64,000 nucleotides of DNA from Dictyostelium discoideum (Eukaryota). The notes under the pieces were generated by a model. It did not search any database. It was not told where the DNA came from and saw only the letters and a program-made list of their open reading frames with translations. The position numbers and the translations under genes are program-made. Each line of letters begins with the position of its first letter. Position 1 is the stretch's first letter. Below are positions 1,296 through 50,155 of the stretch, in pieces. Location: assembly GCA_000004695.1 (NCBI GenBank), contig CM000150.2, positions 3,264,001-3,328,000 of the forward strand, given 5' to 3'.

Positions 1296-1784
1296 ATGGC
1301 ATTTGACGAAAAACAAACTCAACAACAACAACAACAACTACAACAACAACAACAACAACAACCAATTTATGCTCCACAACAACAACAACAACAACAACAA
1401 TTTATGGCACCACCAATGGCAATTGTTCCACAAGTTGGACAAATGGCTAAACATAAAATTCAAGCAGAACATGAATGTGGTTACAATGTGACTGGTTTTA
1501 AAAATTGTTACCCATCTCAATTATCAAATAATTTATCAAGTGAAGAATATGCATTCATTGTTGAAAAATTAAATAGATTAATACATAGTTTCAGAAAAAC
1601 TGGCCTTGTCATTACTTTACTCTATATTTTCGTTCAATTCTCTTTGGTCTCTTTATTAATTTTCGGTTCAATGGATAATTCAATGGCTTTAATTGGTTCT
1701 TACATTGCTCTCAATATATTAGTAGTAATTATCTATATTATTATTCTTGTTACAAGAAATAGACGTGTATGTATTATTTATTAT

Positions 1785-1825
<41 letters not shown>

Positions 1826-2203
1826 GTTTATTAATTTTTAAATAATTATAATTATTATTAGTTTGTAGAAAGCTTAAAATGTACTGTATCAGAAATCAAT
1901 TCTCAATATACTAATCGTAATATTAGACTTGAAGCTTATAGAAAAGTTGCTAGACGTGTATTCATTGTTAAAGCAAGAATTTATTATCCACCAACTTTAG
2001 TCTTCACACAAGCTCCACAAATGTATAACTATCAACAACAACCACAACAACAATATTATGCACAATCTCCAGTTTACCAACAACAACAACCACAATATGT
2101 TCCACAACAACCACAACCACAATATGCTCCACAACAACAACAACAAACCTATGGAGGTTATACTTTAGATGACAAAACAACCGACTCATCTCCACTCATT
2201 TAA
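1296..2203 (+). CDS. Two-exon gene (1296..1766, 1862..2203) encoding ~270-aa protein: N-terminal poly-Q, two predicted TM helices, PQ-rich C-terminus; possibly GOLGA7/ERF4-like (weak)
   Basis: ORF 1296 ATG; donor GTATGT at 1767, acceptor ...attattag at 1861; exon 2 stays in frame with ORF 2021..2203; hydrophobic stretches 'LVITLLYIFVQFSLVSLLIFG' and 'LIGSYIALNILVVIIYIIILV'; GOLGA7 resemblance is loose pattern-level only. Confidence 0.55.
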
Positions 2204-3306
2204 AAAAAACCAATTTTAAAAATAAGAAATCAAAATAATATCAATAAACTAATCACATGTTGTGATAAAGGAAATAAAAAAAATAAAAAAAAAATATTAA
2301 TGTATAAAAAAAAAAAAAAAAATACCATTTTAAAAAAATTTTGTTTTTTTTAATTATTTAATTTGAAATGAAAAAATTTCTTTTTATTTTTTTTTTTTTT
2401 TTAAAAATTAATTAATTAAAATTGAAAAAAATTAATTAATATCGCAAATGCAGAATAAAAAAGAAATTTATTTAATGGATGAATTTAGTAGTGGATTTAG
2501 GAGATATTTTTATTTATAACAAATTTCATTTTCAGATAATATTATTTTTTTAATTTTAATTTTAATTTTTTTTTTTTTATTATTAGTTAAAAACATAAAT
2601 ATGATTGTTTATTTTATAATTTTTAATTTTTAATTTTAATTTTTTATTAAAACCAAAATCTTTATATTTTTATCTTTTTTTTTTACTTTATTTTATTTTG
2701 TTTATTATTATTATAATAATATATAACAACAATGAAAAAAAAAAAAAAAAACTTTTAAATGTTTCCAATACAATATAAATTAAAATATATTTTGTGAATC
2801 TTTTTTTGTATGTGTAAAAATTACAATACACAAAGTTAATTATAATTCAATTATTCATGGATAGGTCCTTTTTTAAATATTTTTTTACTTTTTTTTAACA
2901 AAACAAAAAAAAAAAACTTCACACAAAAAAATCTGGCAGATTTTTTTTTTTTTTTTGGGAATCAATTAATCAAGTTTTATTTTTATCTTTTTTTTTTTTT
3001 TTTATAAAAAATAGATATTTTACATCCTGGTTAATTTTTATTTTGTTATTTTTAAAATAAAGTGACTTTCCTAAAACAAAAAGTGATTTTTTAAATTTAA
3101 GATATTTTGAGAGTGGAATTGGAAATGGTTGACGATTATTCTGATTTTTTTTTATTTTATTTTATTTTTTTCAAATATTTTAATTTTAAAATTTATTTTT
3201 AAATTTTATTTTATTTTTTTTTTTTTTTCAAAACGAAGGATAAAAATCCCATTTTCAAAATGATTTTTTTTTTTTTTTTCATTTTTGATATTGCTCTTAA
3301 AATAAA

Positions 3307-3606
3307 ATGAATAAGTTAATTAGTTTATTACTTGTATGCTTAGTTGCTATTGCATTAGTGAATGCTGATTGTGCTATCGATTTTGATAGTGACACAGGTA
3401 AATTTAAATTAAAATAAAAAAAACAAACAAACAAACACTAACTCATTAAAATATTTAGTAAACTCTGTTACATCTAGTGATTGGAGTTGCTTAGCTGCTA
3501 GCAATGATCGTGTTATTATGCAAGTATTTTCTGGTGGTTATGGGTAAATATTATTCTAAAAAAAAAAAAAAACAAAACAATTTTAAAACATATTTCAGTA
3601 CTAATA

Positions 3607-3639
<33 letters not shown>

Positions 3640-4805
3640 ATTAGATATACTTCAGGAATTGCTTCTGCAGTCCAAGGTGCCCAAGCAGCTGGTATTTCTA
3701 CAATTGATCTCTATGCATTCTTATGTAATCAATGGTAGGATAATAATAATAATAATTATTTATTTATTTTTATTTTCTTTTTTCCTAATCTTTGTTTTTT
3801 TATTTTTTTATTTATAGCTCAGGTAATAGTCCATCATCTTCAGCAATCCAAAGTATTGTATCTCAACTTCAAAATGATGGTGTTTCATACAATATGTTAT
3901 GGATTGATGTTGAACAATGTGATGGATGTTGGGGTGATTTAGGTGACAACGCAGCATTTGTTCAAGAAGCCGTTGAAACTGCCCAAAATCTTGGTGTAAG
4001 TTTATAATACTATATTAATGAATATTATAGTGTCGGGGGAACTCAGGAGAGGAATAGAAAGAATTGAGATTTTAAATATTGGTAATGGATTTCAATTAAC
4101 CATAGGATACAATTTTATTATTTTATTATTTTATTATATTATTATTTTATTATTTTATTTTTTAAAGGTTAATGTTGGTGTTTACAGTTCAATTGGTGAA
4201 TGGAGTCAAACTGTAGGTAATTTAAGTGGTTTAGGTGTTGACTTATGGTATGCTCACTATGATAATAATCCATCATTCTCTGATTCAAGCTTTTATGAAT
4301 TTGGTGGTTGGACTTCACCAACTATGAAACAATACGCTGGTAATGGAAATGAGTGTGGTGTTAGCGTTGATATGAATTTCTTTGGTTCTGGAACATGTTC
4401 AGCATCAACTGGTTCAGGTTCAGGTAAATTTTTTTTTCTATTTTTTTTTTTTTTTTTATTCTTTTTTTAAAAAAAAATTACTAACCATAACAACTCTTGG
4501 TAATCAGGCTCATCATCAGGTTCATCATCAGGTTCATCATCAGGTTCATCATCAGGTTCAGGTTCATCATCAGGTTCAGGTTCATCATCTGGTTCATCAT
4601 CAGGTTCAGGTAAATTTTTTTATTTTTATTTTTATTTTTATTTTTATTTTTATTTTTTTTTTTCTTCTTTCGGCAAACGATTACTAACCGCAGCAACTCA
4701 TTACCACCATCAGGATCAGGCTCATCATCATCAGGATCAGGCTCAGGTTCAGGTTCATCATCAGGCTCAGGTTCATCATCAGGATCGGGATCAGGTTCAT
4801 CATAA
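3307..4805 (+). CDS. GH25-family (Entamoeba/Chalaropsis-type) lysozyme with signal peptide and C-terminal Ser/Gly-rich tail; 7 exons (3307..3397, 3458..3542, 3645..3734, 3818..3995, 4168..4423, 4508..4609, 4714..4805)
   Basis: Signal peptide MNKLISLLLVCLVAIALVNA; motifs 'MLWIDVEQCDGCWGD' and 'VDLWYAHYD' typical of GH25 catalytic domain; all introns GTAAAT/GTAAGT/GTAGGA...AG, phases hand-checked; last two exons encode (GSSS/GS)n repeats, stop TAA 4803..4805. Confidence 0.7.
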
Positions 4806-10208: not shown

Positions 10209-13152
10209 ATGAGAAAATTAGTAATATTAATTATTTTATCAATTGTGTGTAGTTTATTTATTGGATCGATTGAATCAGTAGATACTAGTAAATTTAAGAC
10301 TTGTAAAGATTCACACTTTTGTAAAAGAAATAGAGTTTCACATGAAGTTGGAGTAATGAATGAAATGAAATCCAAACAAAATTTTAACATTGTAGAAGGT
10401 TCAATTAAATTGGTAAAGCAAGAGAATACCATTTACTTTGATTTACAAGAACAAAATCAAAAGAGTAATCTATTAACAATGAAACTTGAAATCTATGAAG
10501 GAGGTATCGTAAGAATGAGAGCTCAAGAAAAAGAACCATTATTGAATAAGCAACGTTACCAAGTTCAAGATGTTTTATTGGATACAATTAAAACCGTACC
10601 AATTCAATGGAAACAAGAACCTTCAAAACAATCAAACACTTTTTCATTTAAACATGGTGAAAAGGAGTGTTGTTATGTATTAGTACAATTGGTACCATTT
10701 AAATTGGATGTTTACATTATGAATGAATTGGCAATTACAACCAATAGTGATAATCTATTCCATTTCGAACCAATCTCTGATAAACCACAACCATTACCAC
10801 CAAAAGAAAAAAAATCTGAAGAAGAGAATAAAGAAGCTAATCAAGAAGAAGATAATAATAATAATAATAATGATAACAATGAAGAACAACAAGTTAGTAC
10901 AGAAGGTTATTGGGAAGAAAGATTTGGATCACATCAAGATAGTAAACCAAATGGACCAATGTCAATTGGTATGGATTTCACATTTGTTGGTAGTTCACAT
11001 GTTTATGGTATTCCAGAGCATACTACTCGTTTATCATTAAAATCAACCACTGGAAATGGTATCAATGAACAACCATACCGTCTTTACAATTTAGATGTAT
11101 TCGAGTACGAGATTGATAAAACCATGGCATTGTATGGTCATGTTCCATTAATGATCTCTCATGATACTAAAAAAACAGTTGGTGTATTTTGGTTGAATGC
11201 AGCTGAAACATTTGTCGATATCGAGGATGTAACCACACCAGTATCACCATCAAAGAAAACTCATTGGATTAGTGAATCTGGTATTATCGATGTATTCTAT
11301 TTAACTGGTCCAACACCATCAACAATCTTTAAACAATATGCATATCTAACTGGTACAACTGCATTACCACAAATGTTTTCATTGGGTTATCATCAATGTA
11401 AATGGAATTATAAAGTAAGTTACAATAAAAAAAAAAAAAAAAAAAATTATAATAATAATAATAATAATAATAATAATTAATAAAATACTAATATTATTAT
11501 TATTTTTTTTTATTAAAAATTATTAGTCAGAAGATGATGTTAAACAAGTTGATAATGGATTTGATGAAAATCATATTCCATATGATGTAATTTGGTTAGA
11601 TATTGAACATACAGATGGAAAGAGATATTTCACTTGGGATAATAATAATTTCCCAACACCAGCTGATATGCAAAATATTATTGGTGCTAAACATAGAAAG
11701 ATGGTTACAATCGTTGATCCACATATCAAGAGAGATAACAATTATTATGTTCACTCTGAAGCAACTTCAAAAGGTTATTATATAAAGAATAAGGATGGTA
11801 ATGATTATGATGGTTGGTGTTGGCCAGGTTCTTCATCTTATTTGGATTTCACTAATCCAGAGATTCGTAAATGGTGGGCAACTCAATTTGGTTATGATAA
11901 ATACAAAGGTTCAACACCAAATCTTTACATTTGGAATGATATGAATGAACCATCAGTATTCAATGGTCCAGAAGTATCAATGCATAAAGATGCCAAACAT
12001 CATGGTGGTTTCGAACATCGTGACGTTCACAATCTCTATGGTTACTACTATCATATGGCATCGGCCGATGGTTTGGTTCAAAGAAATGCCGATCAAAATG
12101 ACCGTCCATTCGTTTTATCTCGTGCATTCTATGCTGGTTCTCAAAGAATTGGTGCCATTTGGACCGGTGATAACTCTGCCCAATGGTCACATCTCGAAAT
12201 TTCAAATCCAATGCTTTTATCAATGAATTTGGCCGGTATAACATTTAGTGGTGCCGATGTTGGTGGTTTCTTTGGTAATCCAGATGCTGAACTCTTAACT
12301 CGTTGGTATCAAGCTGGTGCATTCCAACCATTTTTTAGAGGTCATGCCCATTTAGATTCACGTCGTCGTGAACCTTGGTTATTCAATGAACCATACACTA
12401 CCATCATTAGAGAGGCAATCGTCAAACGTTACTCTTACCTTCCATTATGGTATACCACTTTCTATCAAAATACACTCAATGGTGCTCCAGTTATGAGACC
12501 ACTTTGGGTTCAATATCCAAAAGAAGCCAATCTCTTTGATGTTGATGATCATTATTTAATTGGTGATTCACTTTTAGTTAAACCAGTCACTCAACAATCT
12601 TGTAAAACTATGAAAGTCCTCTTACCAGGCCAAAGTGTCAATGAAATTTGGTATGATGTTGATACTGAGAAACCAATCAATGCTGGTGTCATCGAAATTG
12701 ATACTCCTTTAGAAAAGATTCCAGTTTATCAACGTGGTGGTTCAATCATTTCAAAGAAAGAAAGAGTTCGTAGAAGTACCTATCAAATGAGAGATGATCC
12801 ATACACTATTCGTATCGCTTTGGACTCTTCAAAATCTGCTCAAGGTCAATTATACATTGATGATGAACACTCTTTTGATTATAAAAAAGGTAAATTCCTC
12901 TACAGACAATTCACTTTCAAAGATAATGTTCTCTCATTTTCTGATGCCTCAAATAAAAGCTCAACCTCTTACAAACCAAATGTTACCATTGAAAAAATCG
13001 TTATCCTTGGTGTTCAAAAACCTCACTCGATCACTTGTAACATTACTGGTAAAGAAAAATTATCATTTGAATATGATTCAACTCTTTCAAAACTAACAAT
13101 CAGAAAACCAGATTTATTAGTTGATACTGATTTTATTATAAAATTAAATTAA
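10209..13152 (+). CDS. modA: Glucosidase II alpha subunit (neutral alpha-glucosidase AB, GH31); 2 exons 10209..11414 and 11527..13152; signal peptide present
   Basis: GH31 signatures 'WNDMNEP' and 'GADVGGF'; near-collinear similarity to GANAB across both exons (e.g. 'DVIWLDIEHTDGKRYFTWD', 'WCWPGSSSYLDFTNPE', 'WYQAGAFQPFFRGHAH', 'PVYQRGGSII'); donor GTAAGT at 11415, acceptor tattag at 11526; symbol modA is by analogy with the Dictyostelium glucosidase II gene. Confidence 0.9.
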
Positions 13153-13191
13153 ATTAAAAAATAAATAAAAAGAAAACAAACAAATATAATA

Positions 13192-13242
<51 letters not shown>

Positions 13243-13935
13243 GTTTATATAATATATATTTTCTTTTTATTTATATTTTTTATTTTTTTTTTTATTTTTT
13301 TTTTTTATTATTTTTTTTGTCGATAAAGATATTATTTTTAAAAAAACTATGTACAATTTTCTTTTTTGTTTGCGTTTAAATAATTATTTGGAAATGCTTT
13401 GGTAGTTTTTGATGTTTCCTTCTTCAAACTAAATTTATTTTTTTTTTTTTTAAAAAAAAGAAAAAAATTAATCACCAAAACGAACCTTGGATTGTTGGTG
13501 CTTCATTTCTATTTATCACTCGTATTTGTTTTGTTTATTTTTTGGTTCGATGATTTGGTTGGGTGGTTTTTTTTTTTTTCTTTTTTTTTTTCTTTTTTTT
13601 TTTTCTTTTTTTTCTTTTTTATTTTCTTTTTTTTTTTTTTTTCTTCTTAGAAAAATAAATAATATATCTTGGGAAAAAATAAAAAAAATAAAAGAGGTTT
13701 TTTGGTAAAGTTGGGTGTTTCGAAACACAGTTGTTTTCTATTTTAAAAATAAATATGTTGAGAAAAAGTTGTATTTGTTGTTTTAATTATGATATTGTTC
13801 TTTTAGTTTTATAATTGCTGGTATTGTAGTAGTTATTTATTGTGTTATCATTTTAATTTGTTTTATTTTTTTAGATATTTGATTTTCATTTTTTAGATTT
13901 TTGATTTAGTGAGGAGTTTTTTTTTTTTTTTTTTT

Positions 13936-13967
<32 letters not shown>

Positions 13968-13986
13968 GTGGAAGGTGGTTTTTTTT

Positions 13987-14012
13987 TGTTTTGTTTTTGT
14001 TTTTGTTTTTGT

Positions 14013-14043
<31 letters not shown>

Positions 14044-14074
14044 GTTTTGTTTTGTTTTGTTTTGTTTTGTTTTG

Positions 14075-14100
<26 letters not shown>
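13987..14100. repeat. (GTTTT)n/(GTTTTT)n microsatellite
   Basis: 'gttttgtttttgtttttg...gttttgttttgttttg' run; intergenic. Confidence 0.85.
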
Positions 14101-14105
<5 letters not shown>

Positions 14106-14151
14106 TTTCATTTGAAATGAAAATTATATAATATTTATGCTGTTTTCTCCA

Positions 14152-14568
14152 TTATTTCGTATTGGATGAAGTTGGCATATTGTTGTTACTATTTATATTA
14201 ATACTATTGATATTCATATTCATACTATTGCTGCTGCTGTTGTTATTGTTGCTGTTATTATTGTTGCTGTTATTGTTGTTATTATTAGTATTATTATTGT
14301 TATTGTTATTGTTATTATTATTATTAGCTATATCCATTCCATCTAAATCGATTGGTTCATTACTACTACCACCAGCTGAGTTTGTTGCTGCTTGTGCTTT
14401 TAATTCTTCTTCTTTAAGCTCTCTTTCATATTTAATATAAACCTCTGACTGATTATAAATTGAATCTACCCATCCACTAATTGATGTACTTGTCCAATAT
14501 TTACCTGGATTTAAGTTTTGTAATGAAACCGGTCTGAGAGGTGTATGTACAGTGCCTGAATTCATCAT
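14152..14568 (-). CDS. Hypothetical 138-aa protein with N-terminal unique domain and C-terminal poly-N tail (single exon)
   Basis: ORF with in-frame TAA immediately upstream of ATGATG at 14568; unique N-terminal half MMNSGTVHTPLRPVSLQNLNPGKYWTSTSISGWVDSIYNQSEVYIKYERELKEEELKAQ is not low-complexity; remainder encoded by (CAG/CAA/AAT) repeats. Confidence 0.4.
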   Translation of the reverse strand: MMNSGTVHTPLRPVSLQNLNPGKYWTSTSISGWVDSIYNQSEVYIKYERELKEEELKAQAATNSAGGSSNEPIDLDGMDIANNNNNNNNNNNNTNNNNNNSNNNNSNNNNSSSNSMNMNINSININSNNNMPTSSNTK

Positions 14569-14986
14569 TTATATTTTTCTTTCTTTTTTTTTTAATTGTA
14601 GTTTTTTTTTTTATATTTTACTTTTTTTATTATTTTTTCTTTATTTTGTTTTATTATTCTTTTTTTTTCTTACTAAAAAAAAAAAAAAAAACTATCGTTA
14701 TTACTACAACTAATTTCTTTTTTAAATTATAGTACTTATTTAATTTTTACTATATTTTCGTTATAAATTTGTGTATTGTGGATTTGTTGTTGTTGTTGTT
14801 GTTGTTATTGTTATTATGAGGTTTTTAAAATATTTTATATTTATTTTTATTTTTATTTTTTTTATTTTTTTTATTTATTTAATTACACATATACAAAAGA
14901 TAGATATGACTACACATACACAAAATACACAATAAAATTACTTTATAATTTTTATTTTATTTTATTAAGTGATATCTAGTAGTAGG

Positions 14987-15031
<45 letters not shown>

Positions 15032-15590
15032 AAAAAATTTTAAAAATAAAAAAAAAAAATGAAAACAAAAAATTTTTGAAAATATTTTTTTTTTATTTTT
15101 TTTTAATTTTTTTTTTTTCAATCTTTCTCAATTTTTCTATAAAGAAACCACTTTAGGATTAGTTACTTATTAATAGTAATTCCAAAAAAAAAAAGCTTAT
15201 TTGACTTTTTAATTTTTTTTTTTTTTTTTTTACCTTTTTATATATTAATTTTTTTTTTTTTTTCTTTATTTTTTTAATTTTTTTAATTTTTTTTTTTTTT
15301 TTTAATTTTTTTTTTTTAACATTGGGAATGAATTTTAAGAAAGTCGTTTGGAATGAATTTGAAGAAAGTCGTTTGAAAAAAAGTATTATTTACATTATTT
15401 TTATTTATTTTTCTTTGCAAGATATTATTTTTAAAACTTTTTTTTTTTTTTTTTAAAAAGATGGCAAATTCCAAATGTTGTAAAATGCTAATTTTTTACA
15501 AAATAAAATTTCAGTTTTTTACCACATTTAGGTTTGTTGTGTTTTTTAAAAAAATTTATTATGATTTTTTTTTTTTTTATAAACTGCTAT

Positions 15591-15992
15591 TTAGCAATGA
15601 TGATGACGACTGTGGCAACTTGAAGAAGGATAAGACATCATATAAGTAGAAGTTGGATATTGTTGATAGTATTGTGGGTATACATAACCTTGTTGTGGTT
15701 GAGGATAGCTACCATATTGAACAGCACCTGGATATCCAGCTACTGCTTGTTGTTGTTGTTGTTGTTGTTGTGGATAGACATATCCTTGTTGTTGAATTGG
15801 TTTCATTGGTTGAAGTGGTGTAGTAGCATTTGAAGTTGATGGTTGATTTAATAATACAGCAATATGTGGTGGTAAAGTCCAATGAGCACTCTTTGTGTTG
15901 TGATCAACATAATATTGTTTACCACTTTGATCTTGTCTAATTACCCATCCACTTGGTAATCTTGGATCTGTCCATTCTGGTCCTTGATATTT

Positions 15993-16074
<82 letters not shown>

Positions 16075-17286
16075 GGTGCAAATGGTTGTGGTGGTTGTGG
16101 TTCAATTGGTTGTGGTTGAGATTGCGATTGTTGTGGTACAAATGGTTGTGATTGTTGTGGTACAAATGGTTGTGATTGTTGTGGTTCAAATGGTTGTTGT
16201 GGTGATTGTGATACAAATGGTTGTGGTTGAGATTGTGATTGTTGTGGTATAAATGGTTGTTGTTGTGGTGGTGATTGTTGTATAAATGATTTTGGTGGTG
16301 ATTGTGAAATGGTATTAATATTTGTAGTATTATTATAAACTGGTTGTGGTTGTGATTGTTGTTTAATTGGATAGTTTGTACCATTAAATGATTGAATACC
16401 AGTTTCAGTATGAACACAATCTTGTAATTGAATAAATTGAGAAACATTTTCAAAGTAAATTTCACCTTCCATTATACCAACGACTTGATTTTGGTGGATG
16501 ATTGGCTCAACAAATGAAACCATCTTTTGATCTACACCACCATATGATGGGCCAGTGATTTGCTTTGGATCGAAAACAATTGAACTTAATGTAATTGTAA
16601 CTTGACCTAATGATGGGTCAGTCTCACCATTATAATTTTTATATTGTAAAATGTTGAATATAATTGGACAAATCATCAACTCTTTCAATCCTATAGTATA
16701 AATGATTTGGTCAATATCTTCCCATATCAAATTATTTGATTTTTTTGTTTTTAATGTTTTTGTAACTTTTTGAAGTCTAAAAATTTCAAAAAAAAAATAA
16801 TAATAATTAATATTTAGTTTTTCAATAAATAAACTAATAAATAAAAAAACAAATAAAACACTTACTTTGAAGAATTTAAAATATAATAAAATAAATATTT
16901 TTCAATTGATTGATCGGTTGAAGTAATTGGTAAAGCACCAGCATAATATGAAGTTTTAAGGTTTCTAAATGTTAATTTAGTCTCTAAAAATTCAGACATT
17001 TCCAAGTCGAATTCAATTGTTCCATTAGCAACACCTTTATTTCTTAAAACTAATTTATGATGAACTGGACCATTTAAGACTGTAAAGAAATCAATAGAGC
17101 AACCACCAATAAGATTATCGCCGCCAATAACACATGAATCATAACAATCAATTTCAACTTTTTTATTCTTTAAATCTTGATCTTTCATTATTGGTATATG
17201 AAATGTTTGCTCAAATTTCCATGTTGGTGTAATACTTTTACTAATTGATTCAGTTTTAAATTTTTTAAATTGATCAAATTTTAACT

Positions 17287-17992: not shown

Positions 17993-18507
17993 ATAATTAT
18001 AATAAAAATAAAAAAAATATTTTTTTTGATGATGTGTAGTTGGTTATAATATATTTAACCCTTTTTTTATAATTATTAAATTATTCTTACCATTTTTTTT
18101 TTTTTTATTATTAACTATTTTAAAAAAGGGTTGCCAAAGAGAACAAATAAAATCTCAGAATGATCATTTAATAATTTTTTTTTTTTATCCTTTTAAAATT
18201 TTTAACCACAAACTTAAAATAGAAATAATTTGTATTTTAGTTAAATTGTATTTTTTTTTTGTTTTTGTTTAACAAAAAGTTGTCAAACCAATTTTTTTTA
18301 TTTTATTTTTAATTTTTTTTTTTTTTTTTAAACAAAAAAAAAAAAAAAAAAAAAAAACTATAAAAAGGAATTTTTTTGATTGTTTTTTTTTATTTTTATT
18401 TTTATTTTTATTTCATTATAAATCATAAAAAAAAAAATATATATATAACTCTTTTTAAAAAAAAACTAAATTCACATTTTATAATAATAATATTTAAAAA
18501 AAAAGAA

Positions 18508-18723
18508 ATGAATAAATTAATTGTTTTTATTTTATTGGTTGTCTCATTAGCCTGCGTTTTCGGTGAATTAGAAGGTGTCCAACCTCAAGTTTGTAAAATG
18601 AAAGCAAATGATTGCAACAGAATGCACCAAGCTTATTTATATGCAACCCAAAATGGTGATTGGAAAGATATGCCAAAAGATGCCCAAGAATTGTTCTTAT
18701 CAGTTTATAAAAATAATTGTTAA
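18508..18723 (+). CDS. Small secreted peptide (71 aa; signal peptide + ~50-aa mature part with 3 Cys), paralog 1
   Basis: MNKLIVFILLVVSLACVFG|ELEGVQPQVCKMKANDCNRMHQAYLYATQNGDWKDMPKDAQELFLSVYKNNC*; real ATG at 18508 (ORF-track start 18376 is in oligo-T 5' flank). Confidence 0.5.
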   Translation: MNKLIVFILLVVSLACVFGELEGVQPQVCKMKANDCNRMHQAYLYATQNGDWKDMPKDAQELFLSVYKNNC

Positions 18724-19384
18724 ATTTGGAATTCCAATTCTTTTATTTTTAAAAAAAAATACAAAAAAATAAAAAATAATAATAAAAAGTTAAATTTCAT
18801 GATATTATAATTATTTACCATATTTATATTATTTTTGTTTGTTTTTTTTATTTTTTTAATGTTTTTATTGCATTAATTCATGTCCTCCACAAAATTATAA
18901 TTTATTATAATATTTTTTAGTTTGTTTTTTATTTTTTTTTTATTTTTTTTTTTGAAAAATATCTATTGGCAATTCTATAATCATTCTTTGAAATTGTAAA
19001 ATAATATTCAAAAAAAATTACAATCGTGATTGAATTTATTAAAAAAGTAATAACCAAAAAAAAAAAAAAAATAATTATAACTTTTATTTTATAACCACAA
19101 CACACATTTTTATTTTTTTATTTATTTTTTGAAATTTTGAATAATTATTTTATCCTTTCAAAATAGTTTTTTTTTTGTATCTTATCCCAAAATAGTTAAT
19201 AATGGTTAATTATTTTTATTTTTATTTTTATTTTCATTTTTTATTTTCCTTTTTTTTTTTTTTTTATTATTTAAAAAAAATTGTATAAAAAAAAAAAAAA
19301 AAAAAAAGTTATTATCAATTACATTCTTAAACAAAAAAAAAAGAAAAAAAGAAAACAAAGAAAACCTAATTTTTAAAAAAAAAA

Positions 19385-19606
19385 ATGCAAAAAATTATTT
19401 TAGTTATATGCTTAATTTTATCATTGGTATTTATTTCTTATGGAGAACAAACTTCGAGCGCAAAATGTTACATGAGACTCGATGATTGTGAAAAGATGAG
19501 AAAGGCTAGAGAAAAATCAATTGCTGATGGATCAATTAATCATATGCCAGCTCAAGGACGTCAATTATTTGAGGAAATCTATGCAAACAACTGTCCAAAA
19601 GCTTAA
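19385..19606 (+). CDS. Small secreted peptide (73 aa), paralog 2 of 18508..18723
   Basis: MQKIILVICLILSLVFISYG|EQTSSAKCYMRLDDCEKMRKAREKSIADGSINHMPAQGRQLFEEIYANNCPKA*; shared skeleton C-x6-C-x2-M-x(n)-MP-x2-Q/A-x2-LF-x3-Y-x-NNC with paralog 1. Confidence 0.5.
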   Translation: MQKIILVICLILSLVFISYGEQTSSAKCYMRLDDCEKMRKAREKSIADGSINHMPAQGRQLFEEIYANNCPKA

Positions 19607-20818: not shown

Positions 20819-22302
20819 GCAAATAAAAACAAATTTAAATTATTTTACTAAAGGTAGTATATGTACAATTTTTTTTAAAGATTCCTTTTTTCCATTTTTT
20901 TTAAAAGATTGTAGATGAAAAATAAACCTTTTTTTTAGTTTTTTCAGAACTACAATGTTTACCTTTTTTTGTTTTGCATTTTTTTGTGTATTGTTTAATG
21001 TTTAATAATAGTTACTATTTTCATATCATCCGATATCTAAGAAAATCAATTTTGGAATTGTTTTTAAAGATTTGTTTTTTTTTTTTTTGATAACTTCCTT
21101 TATTTATTTATTTTTTCCATAAAAAAACAAATTTAAAAAAATATTAAATTAAAATAAAAAAAAAAACATTTTTATATCTAAAAAACTATATTTTTTTTTA
21201 TTTTCTTTTTTTAATTTTTCTTTTTTAATTTAAAAAAAAAAAATAAAAAAAAAAAAAAATATATTTAATCCATTTTTTTTAAATATAAACGTTTTTTATA
21301 ACCTACTAATAAAGATATAGCGAGTGAGTACTGACATTTCATATTTTATAGTTTTTTAAATATATTTTTTTTTTTTATCACACTAACTTTTTTTTTTTTT
21401 TGATCATTTTTTTTTTTCTCATTTGTAAAATATTTTTTTCAATACACATATACAAATAAACAGACAAAATCCTTATATATAATAATATAACAGAAAAAGT
21501 ATTTTTTATTTTTTTTTTTCTTTTTTTTTATTTTATTTTAATTTTCTTAATTTTTTTTTAAATAATTTATTATTTTTATTATAATCACCATTGTTTTTTT
21601 ATTTTTTTTATTATTTTTTTTTATATTTAATTTTTTTTTTTTTATTTTTATTTAATATAAAAAATTTAATAAATTTATTAAATTATAATCACACATTTTT
21701 TTATTTTTTAATTTTAAATGGTAAGAGGATATTTAGAAATATCAAAATTCGCTATTGTTTAGGTTCATTTTCATACTTTTTTTTTTAATTGAATTTCATC
21801 TCAAAAATTAAAAAATTTTTTTTTTTATTGTTTCTATTCAAATAATTAAAAATTTTTTTTTTTTATTTTTTTTTTTATTTTTTTTTTATTTTTTTTTTTT
21901 GCATAAATCAAACAATTGTTTAATGTTTGCAAATATTTAGTCATTGTGTGAAATTGGGGAATGTGTTTTTTCAAATTTTTTTTTTATATGTTTAAAAAAA
22001 AAAATAATCTCAAAGGTAATAATAAATAATAAATAATAAATAATAAATAATAATAATAATAATAATAATAATGATAATAATAATAATAATAAAAATAAAA
22101 AAATAAAATAAAAATAAAATTATATAAACAGAGTCAAACCCAAATCTTATTTAAAAAGATTGTGTTTGATATTTTATTTTTATTTTATTTTATTTTTTAT
22201 TTTTAAATTATTTATTTTTGTCAATGACAATTTGTGGTTTTGTGTGTGTGGGATTATGTAGAGAATTTTTTGGGTGTTTATGTGTGCGTTTGATAGTGCA
22301 AT

Positions 22303-45659: not shown

Positions 45660-45664
<5 letters not shown>

Positions 45665-47768
45665 GATATTGATTTTCATTTGGATGGTAACCTCTTGGTG
45701 GGTGAGTCATATAAGAATAAGGTGGAACTTGTTGATTTAAACGATTTGAAGGAGAATCTTGTTGTGGTGAATTTTGAGATACAACTTGACCTTGTTGTGG
45801 AATTATCATTGGTTGCACTTGAGGATAACCTTGTGGTGGTGGTTGATAAAATCTTTTATTACCACCTTGAATACCTTGGGGTGGCATTGGGTATTGAGGA
45901 TGTGGTACGGCATAAGGTGGGTGAGCACCTTGGAATACAAATGGTTGATTGGGTGGACCATTTGAGATGACTAAATTAGCACCGGGTGGAATACCTTGAA
46001 TGAATTGTGGTGGTGGTTGTTGTTGTTGTTGTTGTGGTTGTTGTTGTGGTGGTAGATGGCCACCTCTTTGGACACCCATTGGACCTCCAGGTTGACCAGT
46101 TTGTTGTTGTTGTTGCTGTTGTTGTTGATACATTGTTTTTGGAGCACCGCCTGCAGATGGTTGAACTACACCGCCCTGTGGCTGTACGATACCTTGAGGT
46201 TGAACGATACCTTGTGGTTGAACGACACCACCGCCACCTGGTTGTAAAGAACCTGGTGGTTTCATTGTGTGTACATTTACACCAGGTGGTACTTGTTGTA
46301 ATTGTGGTGGTACCATATGATGATGTGGTTGTAATTGTGGATGACCTTGTTGTGAATAAAATTGTGGATTGAATTGAAGTTGTGGAGGTGGTTGATGACC
46401 AACCATATGATGATGTGCTCTCATTTGATAGGCTGCAGCATATGGATCCTCTTCATAACGTGGATAAAATGGATCAACCCAATACAATGAAACTTGATCG
46501 GGTGATTCTGGTTGTAATTGTCTCTTTCTCATTGAATCATAATAGATCTCATTGATTGGTGTAACACTATCAGTATTTGATTCAGTTGTTGATTTAAATG
46601 ATGGTTGTGGTTTATTAACTACAACTGGTACAAATTCTTTTGCATTTGGATTTAATTTTAATTTTGATAATTTAGTTACAGTTGTAGTATTATTATTATT
46701 ATTATTGGTGGTATTAGTAGTGGTAGTAGTAGTATTAGATGATGATGATGATTCATCTTTCTTTTCAACTAATGTAGAAGATTGATCTTTATCTTTTTCA
46801 TCAGATTTTTCTTTTTCTTTTTCTTTTTCTTTTTCATCAACTTTTTCTTTTTCTTTTTCCTTTTCTTTTTCTTTATCATCAGATTTATTTTCTGTTAAAA
46901 TTGTAGTTGTGATTGGTGTTGTAGTTGATTTATCATCTTCAGTAGTAGAGGGGGTGGTAGAATTTGTTGCTGTTGTTGTGGTGGTGGTGGTATTTGTAGT
47001 TGGTGGTGAAGTAGTAGAAGTATTTGTACTTGTAGAAGAACCAGATAATGATAATTGAGTTGGAGTTGGACGTGGTGAACCAGAACCAATTAATGGTGAA
47101 CCAGGTCTAGATTTTGATTTAATTACTAAATTACTACTAAAACTTTTTAATCCTTGAGTTTCAGAACCACGATCAACATTGTTAATTTTTAATTTAAAGT
47201 TATTGAAATCATTTACAAATTTCTCTGGTACGGTTGGAGTTGCCAATTCCAATGATAATGCTTTCACCAAACCATGATTTGAAACGATGGTTGGTACTGG
47301 TGATTTTGGAGCTTGATCACTATGGACCGATGAGAGTAATGGTGTGCCGTTTGGACCAACATTGCCACTACCATTTACTGGTGTGGTTGAAATGTTTGAA
47401 CCAGATTTATTCATTGATTTATTAGTTGGTTCCGATAAGATTTGTCTGTATCTTGTGTAAGCAACTGAACGTGGTGATAAATTTTCACGTGGTGATCCCA
47501 TTACATCTTGATCAATTGTTGATTGATGTAAACGTAATTTTGAAATTGTTGGTGATTCTCTATCACCTAATGGTGAATTAACATTTGTATTTGTTGCTGT
47601 TGGTGTATTATTTGTACTTGTAGTTGCAGTAGTAGTAGTTATATTTTTTGGTGTTGATGGTGTTGATGGTGTTGAACTTGTACTAGATGATGATGGTGAT
47701 TCATTTGTTGTTGTAGTAGTTGAAGTGGATGTAGAAGCTGTTGCTGTTGCTGTTGTTGTTGGTTGGGT

Positions 47769-47856
<88 letters not shown>

Positions 47857-49064
47857 GTTTGTTTTTTATCTTGATGAGTTTGTTGGTGTTTTTTATCTAC
47901 AATTGGTGGTGAAGTTACTGATGGAGTTGATGGTGTATTATTATTATTATTACGTTTGGATGGTGGAATATAAACAGATGATGATGGTGTTGGATTTTGA
48001 GTTGGTGGTGAAGTTGTAGTTGATGTTGTTGAAGTTGGAAGTAATCCTTTTCTAACAACAGAACTATAACGTTCCTCTTCATCATAATCTGCACCTTCAA
48101 CAAAACCACGTTCTTCTAATAAATGAATATTACCTGATTTTTCCTATTTAAATGAATAAAAAAATAATAAATATTAATATTAAATTTTGTTTTGTATATT
48201 TTTTTTTTTTTTTGTATTTTTTTTTTTTTTTTTTACATTTTCAATTTCTTGAGCTTTCTTTTCAGCAACAGATTGATTTATTTTATAAAATTCGGAATCT
48301 CTATCTAAACGAGTTGTATAAATTTCTTCTTCATAAGTTGTTCTAACACCAAATAATTTTTCATTTGTTTCAAATTGATCCCAATTTGCAGGTTTTTTAG
48401 CCTCACTATTTGCAGCGAAATCATCGAGTGATTCGCCAACTGATGGGTCGGGTGTCCATGGTGTTAATTCACGTTCTTTTAAGTTACCATCAAATCCACT
48501 CAATTCTGTATCTGTAATGAATGATTGTTGATCTCTATTCATAAAACTATCTCTATAATGATCCAATACTACACCTGTTGCTGTGATTTGTAGGAAATCT
48601 TTGGCTTCAATGATAACCAATGGTAGTGGTAATGTTGTGATAACTCTATTGTTGGTATCTTTTTTTCTTGCCATTTTTAATGCAACACCCCAACCACCTC
48701 CACTACTACCTGTTGATGTTGATGTTGTATGTAATATACCCTCATATACATCACCATTCTTTAAGGTGACACTTACATTTTGACCTACTAAACTCATTGA
48801 CATAAATACTGTTCTCTCTTTCATTGCTGTTAAACTATCGAATGGTTGTTGTTGTTGTTGTTGTTGTTGCTGTTGTTGTTGTTGTTGTTGTTGATGATGT
48901 TGTTGATTATGGTGTGATTGATGAGGTGATTTATTATTGCTGCTATTTCTATTATTATTATTATTATTATGTTTAGGTGATCCATAACCACCACCTCCAC
49001 TATTATTTCCACCGCCACCACCGCCACCACCTACAAATTTCTTTTTATCTTTTGATTGACTCAT
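45660..49064 (-). CDS. Ataxin-2 homologue (LSm + LsmAD domains, several poly-Q tracts, C-terminal PAM2 motif, P/Q-rich tail); 2 exons (48237..49064, 45660..48143), ~1103 aa
   Basis: LSm 'RTVFMSMSLVGQNVSVTLKNGDVYEGILHT'; LsmAD 'WDQFETNEKLFGVRTTYEEEIYTTRLDRDSEFYKINQSVAEKKAQEIEN'; donor gtaaaaa at 48236, acceptor aaatag 48144/48145, exon 2 in phase 0 (EKSGNIHLLEERGFVEGADYDEEERYSSVVRKG…); PAM2 'LNPNAKEFVP'; pure (CAA)~30 tract 47769..47857. Confidence 0.85.
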
Positions 49065-50084: not shown

Positions 50085-50155
50085 GGGGAGATCCGAGAAT
50101 CGAACTCAGGACGCTACCACCCAAAGGTAGCATTATACCACTTAACTAATCTCCC
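50085..50155 (-). tRNA. tRNA-Pro (anticodon UGG), 71 nt without CCA
   Basis: Minus-strand GGGAGATTAGTTAAGTGGTATAATGCTACCTTTGGGTGGTAGCGTCCTGAGTTCGATTCTCGGATCTCCCC: 7-bp acceptor stem GGGAGAT/ATCTCCC, D-arm GTTA…TAAT, anticodon stem CTACC/GGTAG with loop TTTGGGT (U33, anticodon TGG, G37), T-loop TTCGATT. Confidence 0.8.

Follow-up and report, generated by a model that had tools for sequence, protein, structure and literature searches.

Two very short open reading frames stand side by side on chromosome 1 (4.92 Mb) of Dictyostelium discoideum AX4, and they raise the question of whether they are related genes, what kind of protein they encode and what such proteins might do in development. They were analysed in a window of 64,000 nucleotides (the whole stretch of DNA considered here, from whose first letter all positions are counted), with a base composition of 13–35% G+C and long homopolymer A/T spacers. 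In the list of open reading frames, gene 1 (DDB_G0269672) occupied 18508..18723 and gene 2 (DDB_G0269674) occupied 19385..19606, both on the + strand. Each was a single-exon coding sequence including the stop codon, and the precursors comprised 71 and 73 aa, respectively. The gene 1 protein matched XP_646172.1 (UniProt Q55DF9) from end to end with 100% identity, and so did the gene 2 protein with XP_646173.1 (UniProt Q55DF8). Both genes had thus been annotated already, as single-exon "hypothetical" proteins. The two starts were 877 bp apart, and 661 bp lay between the stop of gene 1 and the ATG of gene 2. The two proteins aligned end to end in BLASTP (46.6 bits, E = 5e-14, 33% identity, 54% positives), and a six-frame tblastn search found no third copy in the 64-kb window, where the next match had E = 0.77. 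An earlier note on this DNA had described a tandem pair of paralogs on the + strand, 0.87 kb apart. This observation was correct and far beyond chance, given the BLASTP E-value and the presence of only two loci in the tblastn search of the window.

The extent of the family was determined by a word-indexed search, which covered 5.8 billion proteins, and by a profile HMM scan, which covered 1.84 billion cluster representatives. For each gene, the word-indexed search returned only the protein itself and one D. firmibasis protein: RB653_007031 was 73% identical to gene 1, and RB653_007030 was 80% identical to gene 2. The profile HMM scan added the paralog DDB_G0293422 (E = 7e-11), and a second, word-indexed profile search added the paralog DDB_G0271260 (E = 1e-24) and comprised six proteins in total. 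These two paralogs were unlinked, were located on other chromosomes (contigs of 3.6 and 8.5 Mb) and shared 39–42% identity with gene 1. The family consisted of four D. discoideum genes and two D. firmibasis proteins (six members), and the word-indexed and profile searches detected no further members in other annotated dictyostelids or in other organisms. A 490-aa repeat protein with a profile E-value of 4e-4 was rejected as spurious; its match was due solely to a repeated 'NLFVSVYNN' string. The suggestion in the earlier note of a lineage-specific family was borne out by the protein and profile searches, which recovered the D. firmibasis pair and also the two unlinked D. discoideum paralogs that the note had missed. 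Luna and Chain (2021; PMC8535579) independently included DDB_G0293422 and DDB_G0271260 among the 'lineage-specific genes' of D. discoideum. In their comparison of five dictyostelid genomes, each of the two formed a singleton orthogroup; the stage-specificity indices were 0.98 and 0.90, respectively, and expression of both peaked at 24 h. In the searchable literature, no paper text named any of the four gene identifiers, and no paper matched a small secreted, prestalk or signal-peptide family of this description. This is a young family, limited to the D. discoideum/D. firmibasis lineage, with no earlier description in the searchable literature.

In D. firmibasis, a 74-aa gene followed by a 76-aa gene formed the orthologous pair, which was perfectly syntenic with the window pair, and the adjacency of the two genes was conserved. 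The gene order in both species was glucosidase-II α, a 135-aa gene, a C2/WW gene, the pair and a 745-aa gene. Comparison of the D. discoideum and D. firmibasis orthologs by the Nei-Gojobori method gave pS 0.40 and pN 0.12 for gene 1, with dN/dS of 0.24 for the whole protein and 0.19 for the mature part. For gene 2, pS was 0.45 and pN was 0.08, and dN/dS was 0.12 for the whole protein and 0.08 for the mature part. The whole-protein values of 0.24 and 0.12 indicated that selection acts on the protein and not on the transcript alone. Paralogy, syntenic orthologs and purifying selection together identify these as real protein-coding genes.

Very small genes that are induced in prestalk cells have a precedent in Dictyostelium. 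Genes of the hssA/2C/7E/SigN family consist of a 13-nt first exon and a second exon of ~200 bp, the family has nearly 100 members, and a frame-shifted hssA construct still suppresses a mutant phenotype, an effect partly attributed to the transcript (Vicente et al., 2008, PMC2257962; Kin et al., 2018, PMC6198379). The present genes resembled that family in their very small size (~213 bp there, 216–222 bp here), in proteins of less than 90 aa, in expansion within D. discoideum, in induction after aggregation, in prestalk/cup expression and in the extremely high expression of some members. However, the genes of the window pair were single uninterrupted ORFs and lacked the two-exon structure, and the present family has four genes, a classical type of predicted signal peptide and a putative three-Cys hairpin. 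No similarity to hssA/SigN was retrieved by the profile HMM scan (1.84 billion proteins) or by the word-indexed profile search (six proteins). Membership was rejected on the grounds of the two-exon structure, the ~100 members and the lack of similarity; the hssA/2C/7E/SigN family is the closest biological analogue of the present family, not its relative. The same likeness in gene size (~216–222 bp) and prestalk/cup expression could point to a function at the RNA level, or the genes might be functionless young ORFs. Protein detection was indeed not found in the 2026 life-cycle proteome supplement, in which Q55DF8 appeared solely as a node of a STRING co-expression cluster. An hssA-type function of the RNA only is nevertheless disfavoured by the dN/dS values (0.12–0.24 at pS 0.40–0.45). 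In addition, the Cys, MP and LF residues were invariant across paralogs that were only 32–42% identical, and the fold was predicted with confidence, so that both an RNA-level function and an absence of function seem most improbable.

If the proteins matter, the next point is where they go. The predicted signal peptide of gene 1 (18508..18564, + strand; MNKLIVFILLVVSLACVFG) had 19 aa, with cleavage between G19 and E20. That of gene 2 (19385..19444, + strand; MQKIILVICLILSLVFISYG) had 20 aa, with S at position −3, G at −1 and E at +1. The mean Kyte-Doolittle value of the hydrophobic core was 3.32 in gene 1, in which V and G occupied −3 and −1, and 3.61 in gene 2. All six members began with M-N/Q-K, followed by a hydrophobic core of ~14 residues with a mean Kyte-Doolittle value of 3.3–3.6, and in each the junction had Glu at +1 without exception, preceded by G at −1 and by V or S at −3. 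The n/h/c anatomy of a Sec/SPase I substrate, with small residues at −3 and −1, was thus recognisable in six of six members. Since the hydrophobic core is too short for a transmembrane helix or membrane anchor, these N-termini look like textbook cleavable signal peptides, and the anatomy of the sequence places the probable cleavage site at G|E. An N-glycosylation sequon, a KDEL/HDEL signal or a C-terminal hydrophobic tail was found in none of the six.

The predicted mature chain of gene 1 (18565..18720, + strand) comprised 52 aa (6.07 kDa, pI 5.6), with Cys at precursor positions 29, 36 and 71. According to alignments and composition, that of gene 2 (19445..19603, + strand) comprised 53 aa (6.07 kDa, pI 8.0) and also contained three Cys. 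These lengths agreed with the ~20 aa of signal peptide and ~50 aa of mature chain that had been proposed from the DNA. Across the six members, the predicted mature chains measured 50–56 aa and 5.7–6.4 kDa, and each contained exactly three invariant Cys. The residues invariant in all six, in the numbering of the gene 1 precursor, were C29, D35, C36, A42, M55-P56, F63, N69 and C71. The C-x6-C…MP…LF…NNC skeleton that the earlier note had drawn was present, but its 'Q/A' position is occupied by A in gene 1 and by G in gene 2. Its odd number of Cys held for the mature chains (three each) and not for the precursors, because a fourth Cys lies inside each signal peptide of the window pair (C16 in gene 1, C9 in gene 2). 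A member lacking the signal peptide or the Cys pattern, which the same note had named as evidence against a secreted family, was not encountered; within the two species to which the family was restricted, all six kept both the predicted signal peptide and the three Cys.

The fold was predicted with AlphaFold2. The model of the gene 1 mature chain had a mean pLDDT of 86.3, with 93–96 across residues 11–50, and contained helices at 14–30, 32–35 and 38–51. With the full-length alignment as input, pLDDT was 82 and helices were placed at 33–48 and 57–70. An antiparallel α-hairpin was predicted with high confidence from either input. The invariant M-P was located at the start of helix 2, and the ~12 residues after the cleavage site, including C29, had low confidence. 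In the register of the monomer model, residue i of helix 1 faces approximately residue 105−i of helix 2, which places C36 beside C71. On this basis, C36 and C71 may form the staple of the hairpin and C29 would be the spare thiol. A Foldseek search of the full-length model against the PDB gave no match below E = 8, and the best hit of a sequence profile search of the PDB was phospholamban at chance level (E = 0.11). The two window proteins had no Pfam match at E up to 10, and five members together had two non-significant Pfam matches only.

Several known families invite comparison with this predicted architecture. Plant α-hairpinins (CX3C…CX3C) and twin-CX9C CHCH domains are antiparallel hairpins of ~40–60 residues whose ends are tied by disulfides, and the two-helix antiparallel hairpin predicted here resembles them. 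Those folds have four Cys, grouped symmetrically as two pairs with each pair confined to a single helix, whereas the present family has three Cys (C-x6-C plus a C-terminal Cys), which would permit at most one staple and leave one spare thiol. Two CX3C or CX9C motifs were not found, the first mature Cys precedes helix 1, and the present proteins had no sequence match or significant structural match to α-hairpinins or CHCH domains. Rop, a cytoplasmic bacterial RNA-binding protein without disulfides, dimerises from two hairpins into a four-helix bundle; the resemblance would be one of architecture alone, a dimer being a proposal for the present family. Euplotes pheromones are also small, helical, Cys-stabilised, cell-type-specific, rapidly evolving and lineage-restricted, and are made with a signal peptide. 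However, a Euplotes pheromone folds into a bundle of three helices and has its Cys in even number, forming three or more disulfides, as opposed to a predicted hairpin with three Cys, and there was no homology. Saposin- and amoebapore-like proteins (SAPLIP) are characterised by a length of ~80 aa, a fold of four to five helices, a conserved set of six Cys and the Pfam domain SapB; the present proteins had two main helices in the model, three Cys and no significant match to SapB. Late nodulins/NCR peptides (PF07127) have four or six Cys; with three Cys, only one of five members matched this family, at E = 0.084. The six proteins would thus represent an undescribed family of a familiar kind, that of lineage-restricted, Cys-stabilised small secreted proteins.

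That weak and non-significant late-nodulin match is one of the points in favour of antimicrobial peptides, a possibility named in the earlier note, or of defence peptides protecting the slug tip, the stalk or the sorus. The predicted helices are small and amphipathic (hydrophobic moments 0.32 and 0.39), and a young, lineage-restricted family is typical for immune effectors. However, the net charge of the mature chains ranged from −3 to +1, and the pI went down to 4.4. The mature part was under strong purifying selection rather than diversifying selection (dN/dS 0.08–0.19), and the genes were not expressed in feeding amoebae. The neutral-to-acidic charge together with the purifying selection disfavours a role of the classical cationic kind, and we consider a defence function in general to be quite improbable.

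The timing of expression was taken from raw RNA-seq reads of filter development in two replicates (Rosengarten et al., 2015; PMC4403905). From 0 to 11 h, DDB_G0269672 had mostly 0–13 reads (single replicates up to 43) and DDB_G0269674 mostly 0–12 (up to 35). At 12 h, the two replicates gave 63 and 59 reads for DDB_G0269672 and 32 and 37 for DDB_G0269674; at 14 h, 515 and 287 versus 377 and 227; at 18 h, 1615 and 2090 versus 1214 and 2136; and at 24 h, 743 and 915 versus 674 and 861. Over 14–16 h, counts of the two genes were in the range of about 300–500 reads. Both window genes were thus near background until 11 h, were induced at 12 h and peaked at 16–18 h, and their time courses were almost superimposable (Pearson r = 0.99). 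Both are strongly and developmentally expressed, and the lack of expression that would have spoken against the earlier note's claim was not observed. Quorum and pre-starvation factors act during growth or early starvation. The timing, with near-background reads at 0–11 h and onset at 12 h in prestalk cells, therefore makes the quorum-factor-like role that had also been suggested unlikely.

Cell-type data placed the family in one lineage. The values of Parikh 2010 given by Kin et al. (2018; PMC6198379) for DDB_G0269674 were 0, 0, 12, 548, 2250, 1635 and 1109 over 0–24 h, and 3815 in prestalk versus 85 in prespore cells, a 45-fold prestalk enrichment; the gene belonged to the stalk-specific set. 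For DDB_G0269672, the assignment to the prestalk lineage was based on its time course and on the ratio of cup/stalk over spore (~40 vs. 2.4 TPM). Mean TPM values in cup, stalk and spore cells purified from mature fruiting bodies and in vegetative cells (PMC6198379) were 36, 45, 2.4 and 0.15 for DDB_G0269672; 22, 98, 7 and 0 for DDB_G0269674; 1978, 3047, 59 and 0.3 for DDB_G0271260; and 588, 9, 10 and 0.07 for DDB_G0293422, respectively. DDB_G0271260 spanned 1700–3500 TPM in cup and stalk and was detected only from 18–20 h on, and DDB_G0293422 was on only at 24 h. The whole family is specific to the prestalk-derived somatic lineage (prestalk, stalk and cup). Its paralogs split time and cell type among them, from slug prestalk to stalk plus cup and then to cup only.

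The shared time course of the pair has a possible counterpart in the upstream DNA. Intergenic regions were compared by a G/C-filtered exact-block search; permissive blastn gave mainly low-complexity matches. The upstream regions compared had 9–13% G+C, and TAACCACA was the only 8-mer with at least three G/C that all four of them (two genes in each of two species) had in common. In the window, this candidate cis-element was located at 18203..18210 (+ strand), 305 bp upstream of the gene 1 ATG, and at 19092..19099 (+ strand), 293 bp upstream of the gene 2 ATG. It was on the coding strand in four of four upstream regions (−305, −293, −267 and −268 from the ATG) and lay inside blocks conserved between the species. 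It may be an element for the common prestalk, post-aggregative control. D. firmibasis has a third copy of TAACCACA, which prompted consideration of a degenerate third gene downstream; this was ruled out by tblastn in both species.

We have high confidence that these are small, cell-type-specific proteins entering the secretory pathway. A signal peptide indicates entry into the ER only, and the proteins might then never be released but remain within the lumen of the secretory or endolysosomal system. Their location would in that case be prestalk-specific vesicles or, in stalk cells, the autophagic vacuole. Autophagy and vacuolisation programmes are enriched in stalk cells, and the cells that express the two late paralogs are in the course of terminal vacuolisation. 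However, the proteins had no recognisable retention or sorting motif and no transmembrane segment or glycosylation site, and expression began at 12 h, long before vacuolisation. A lumenal residence is therefore unlikely, and secretion provides the frame for the following scheme.

We propose that the signal peptide of 19–20 aa would take the precursor into the ER, where signal peptidase would cut at the invariant G|E to give a chain of ~6 kDa. This chain would fold into the two-helix hairpin that was predicted with high confidence, and one intramolecular disulfide, most likely Cys36–Cys71 as judged from the helix register, would staple it. The Cys left unpaired, probably Cys29 of the flexible N-terminal arm, could then make an intermolecular disulfide. 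A second hairpin might be its partner; the result would be a four-helix bundle, built either from two identical chains or from the products of the two co-expressed neighbours. The other candidate would be a matrix protein rich in Cys. As the chain has no signal for retention, GPI anchoring or membrane insertion, prestalk cells would release it from the tipped-mound stage on. On its own, a hairpin of ~50 residues held by a single staple would hardly be stable as a monomer, and the extra Cys exists in all members, so a covalent dimer or coupling to the matrix would be the simplest arrangement. The idea of a charge-complementary heterodimer was rejected: the charge complementarity between the neighbours was not conserved in D. 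firmibasis, and thus nothing specifically favours the heterodimer.

As to function, we tentatively favour a matrix-associated accessory or structural role in the extracellular matrix built by prestalk cells (slime sheath or stalk tube) over that of a dose-limited signal. The transcripts are very abundant, and their onset coincides with the time when prestalk cells start to build the sheath and the stalk tube. Prestalk cells synthesise the stalk tube, and the stalk gene set is strongly enriched for extracellular-matrix genes (Kin et al., 2018; PMC6198379); this dominance of matrix proteins in the set to which DDB_G0269674 belongs also speaks for a matrix role. The unpaired Cys is what covalent incorporation into the matrix would need. 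A cellulose-binding or other matrix domain was not found in the proteins.

The abundance of the transcripts may be compatible with a signalling role too. The hairpins could be prestalk-derived intercellular signals whose receptor would belong to prespore cells or to further prestalk cells, and they would thereby coordinate slug behaviour or culmination. Proteins that are small, with predicted signal peptides and probable disulfide stabilisation, would suit such a function. Their expression is strictly specific to cell type and stage and starts from tip formation, when prestalk cells become the organiser. The pair has also been kept together: the two genes are co-expressed 1:1 in D. discoideum, and they are neighbours in D. 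firmibasis too. For several culmination signals of Dictyostelium, SDF-1 for example, no gene is known. Gene 2 was rejected as the SDF-1 precursor; its sole PKA-like site, REKS, is lost in D. firmibasis (RDKA). Against a signal stand transcript levels that are very high for a ligand, and receptor or processing sites were not evident. The family is moreover limited to two very close species, whereas core dictyostelid signalling is conserved far more widely. We regard an intercellular signal as the main, though doubtful, alternative to the matrix role. The more specific form, in which the pair would be the two chains of a disulfide-linked heterodimeric morphogenetic signal from prestalk (tip-organiser) cells, a cue for slug behaviour or culmination restricted to the species, and the late paralogs would serve likewise for cup and stalk, appears improbable.

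The genes are real, expressed and under selection, and their kind is ordinary. Prestalk cells organise the slug and build its matrix, and few of their secreted products are known at the gene level. Two "hypothetical" ORFs have here become part of a defined six-member family with a predicted three-Cys hairpin and prestalk/stalk/cup-specific expression. The promoters of the family are compact, very strong and specific to cell type, and its paralogs illustrate neatly how young duplicates come to differ in their regulation inside a somatic lineage that is itself a recent product of evolution. Should the spare Cys serve dimerisation or coupling to the matrix, these proteins would be a small and tractable model of extracellular assembly. 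If they are ligands, they would be candidates for the orphan culmination signals, and, if the heterodimeric signal is true, they would be the first family of peptide ligands that is encoded by genes, depends on a signal peptide and is confined to the prestalk lineage.

Between D. discoideum and D. firmibasis, the promoters of the two tandem genes DDB_G0269672 (gene 1) and DDB_G0269674 (gene 2) had one candidate cis-element in common. Among the 8-mers with at least three G/C, TAACCACA was the sole one present in all four promoters (both genes, two species). Its copies were located on the coding strand at 18203-18210 and 19092-19099 of the window, and at 4784-4791 and 5733-5740 of L001, the D. 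firmibasis locus that carries the orthologous pair. The element was 267-305 bp upstream of the ATG for both genes in both species. An extra third copy was found at position 6870 of L001, and no gene followed it.

Downstream of gene 2, there was a gap of 3.7 kb without ORFs. Comparison with D. firmibasis revealed a conserved block of ~215 bp in this gap (21265-21480, corresponding to about 7765-7960 of L001) with ~87% identity, and matching sequence was also found at 21926-21952. The block included an exact match of 35 bp at 21313-21347 (AGATATAGCGAGTGAGTACTGACATTTCATATTTT), and it was more conserved than the synonymous sites of gene 1 and gene 2, whose synonymous difference per site (pS) was 0.40-0.45. 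It contained no ORF and had no match in Rfam. Possible identities for the block are a non-coding RNA missing from the annotation, an untranslated exon and an enhancer.

Upstream of the pair, the full gene order of the neighbours was kept in D. firmibasis (10209-17188 of the window versus 1-4237 of L001). This region comprised a glycoside hydrolase family 31 gene, presumably split by an intron into two ORFs (10209-11480 and 11668-13152), and, on the minus strand, a 138-aa ORF and the C2/WW-domain gene DDB_G0269670. The latter was expressed at ~62 TPM in vegetative cells but reached at most ~1 TPM in cup and stalk, a pattern opposite to that of the adjoining pair.

Elsewhere in the window, the sole tRNA was a tRNA-Pro(UGG) gene (50085-50155, -). 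Both the G+C maximum (0.35) and the strongest GC skew were at 45660-49064 (-), which is ordinary Gln/Pro-rich coding sequence consisting of two ORFs of 613 and 294 aa, of which the shorter is Lsm-like in its middle region.

Outside the window, the family profile matched P0006, a 490-aa metagenomic repeat protein, with an E-value of 4e-4. P0006 was rejected as a relative because this value arose solely from its repeated AAAGNLFVSVYNNQHH unit, which illustrates that short-motif profile matches near E=4e-4 are unreliable.

The unlinked paralog DDB_G0271260 is adjoined on chromosome 2 by DDB_G0271262, labelled "unknown (not in dictyBase)" in a published expression table and strongly stalk-specific, with ~200-310 TPM in stalk versus ~3 in cup and <1 in spores (Kin 2018, PMC6198379). 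DDB_G0271262 might be another small stalk gene next to a member of this family.
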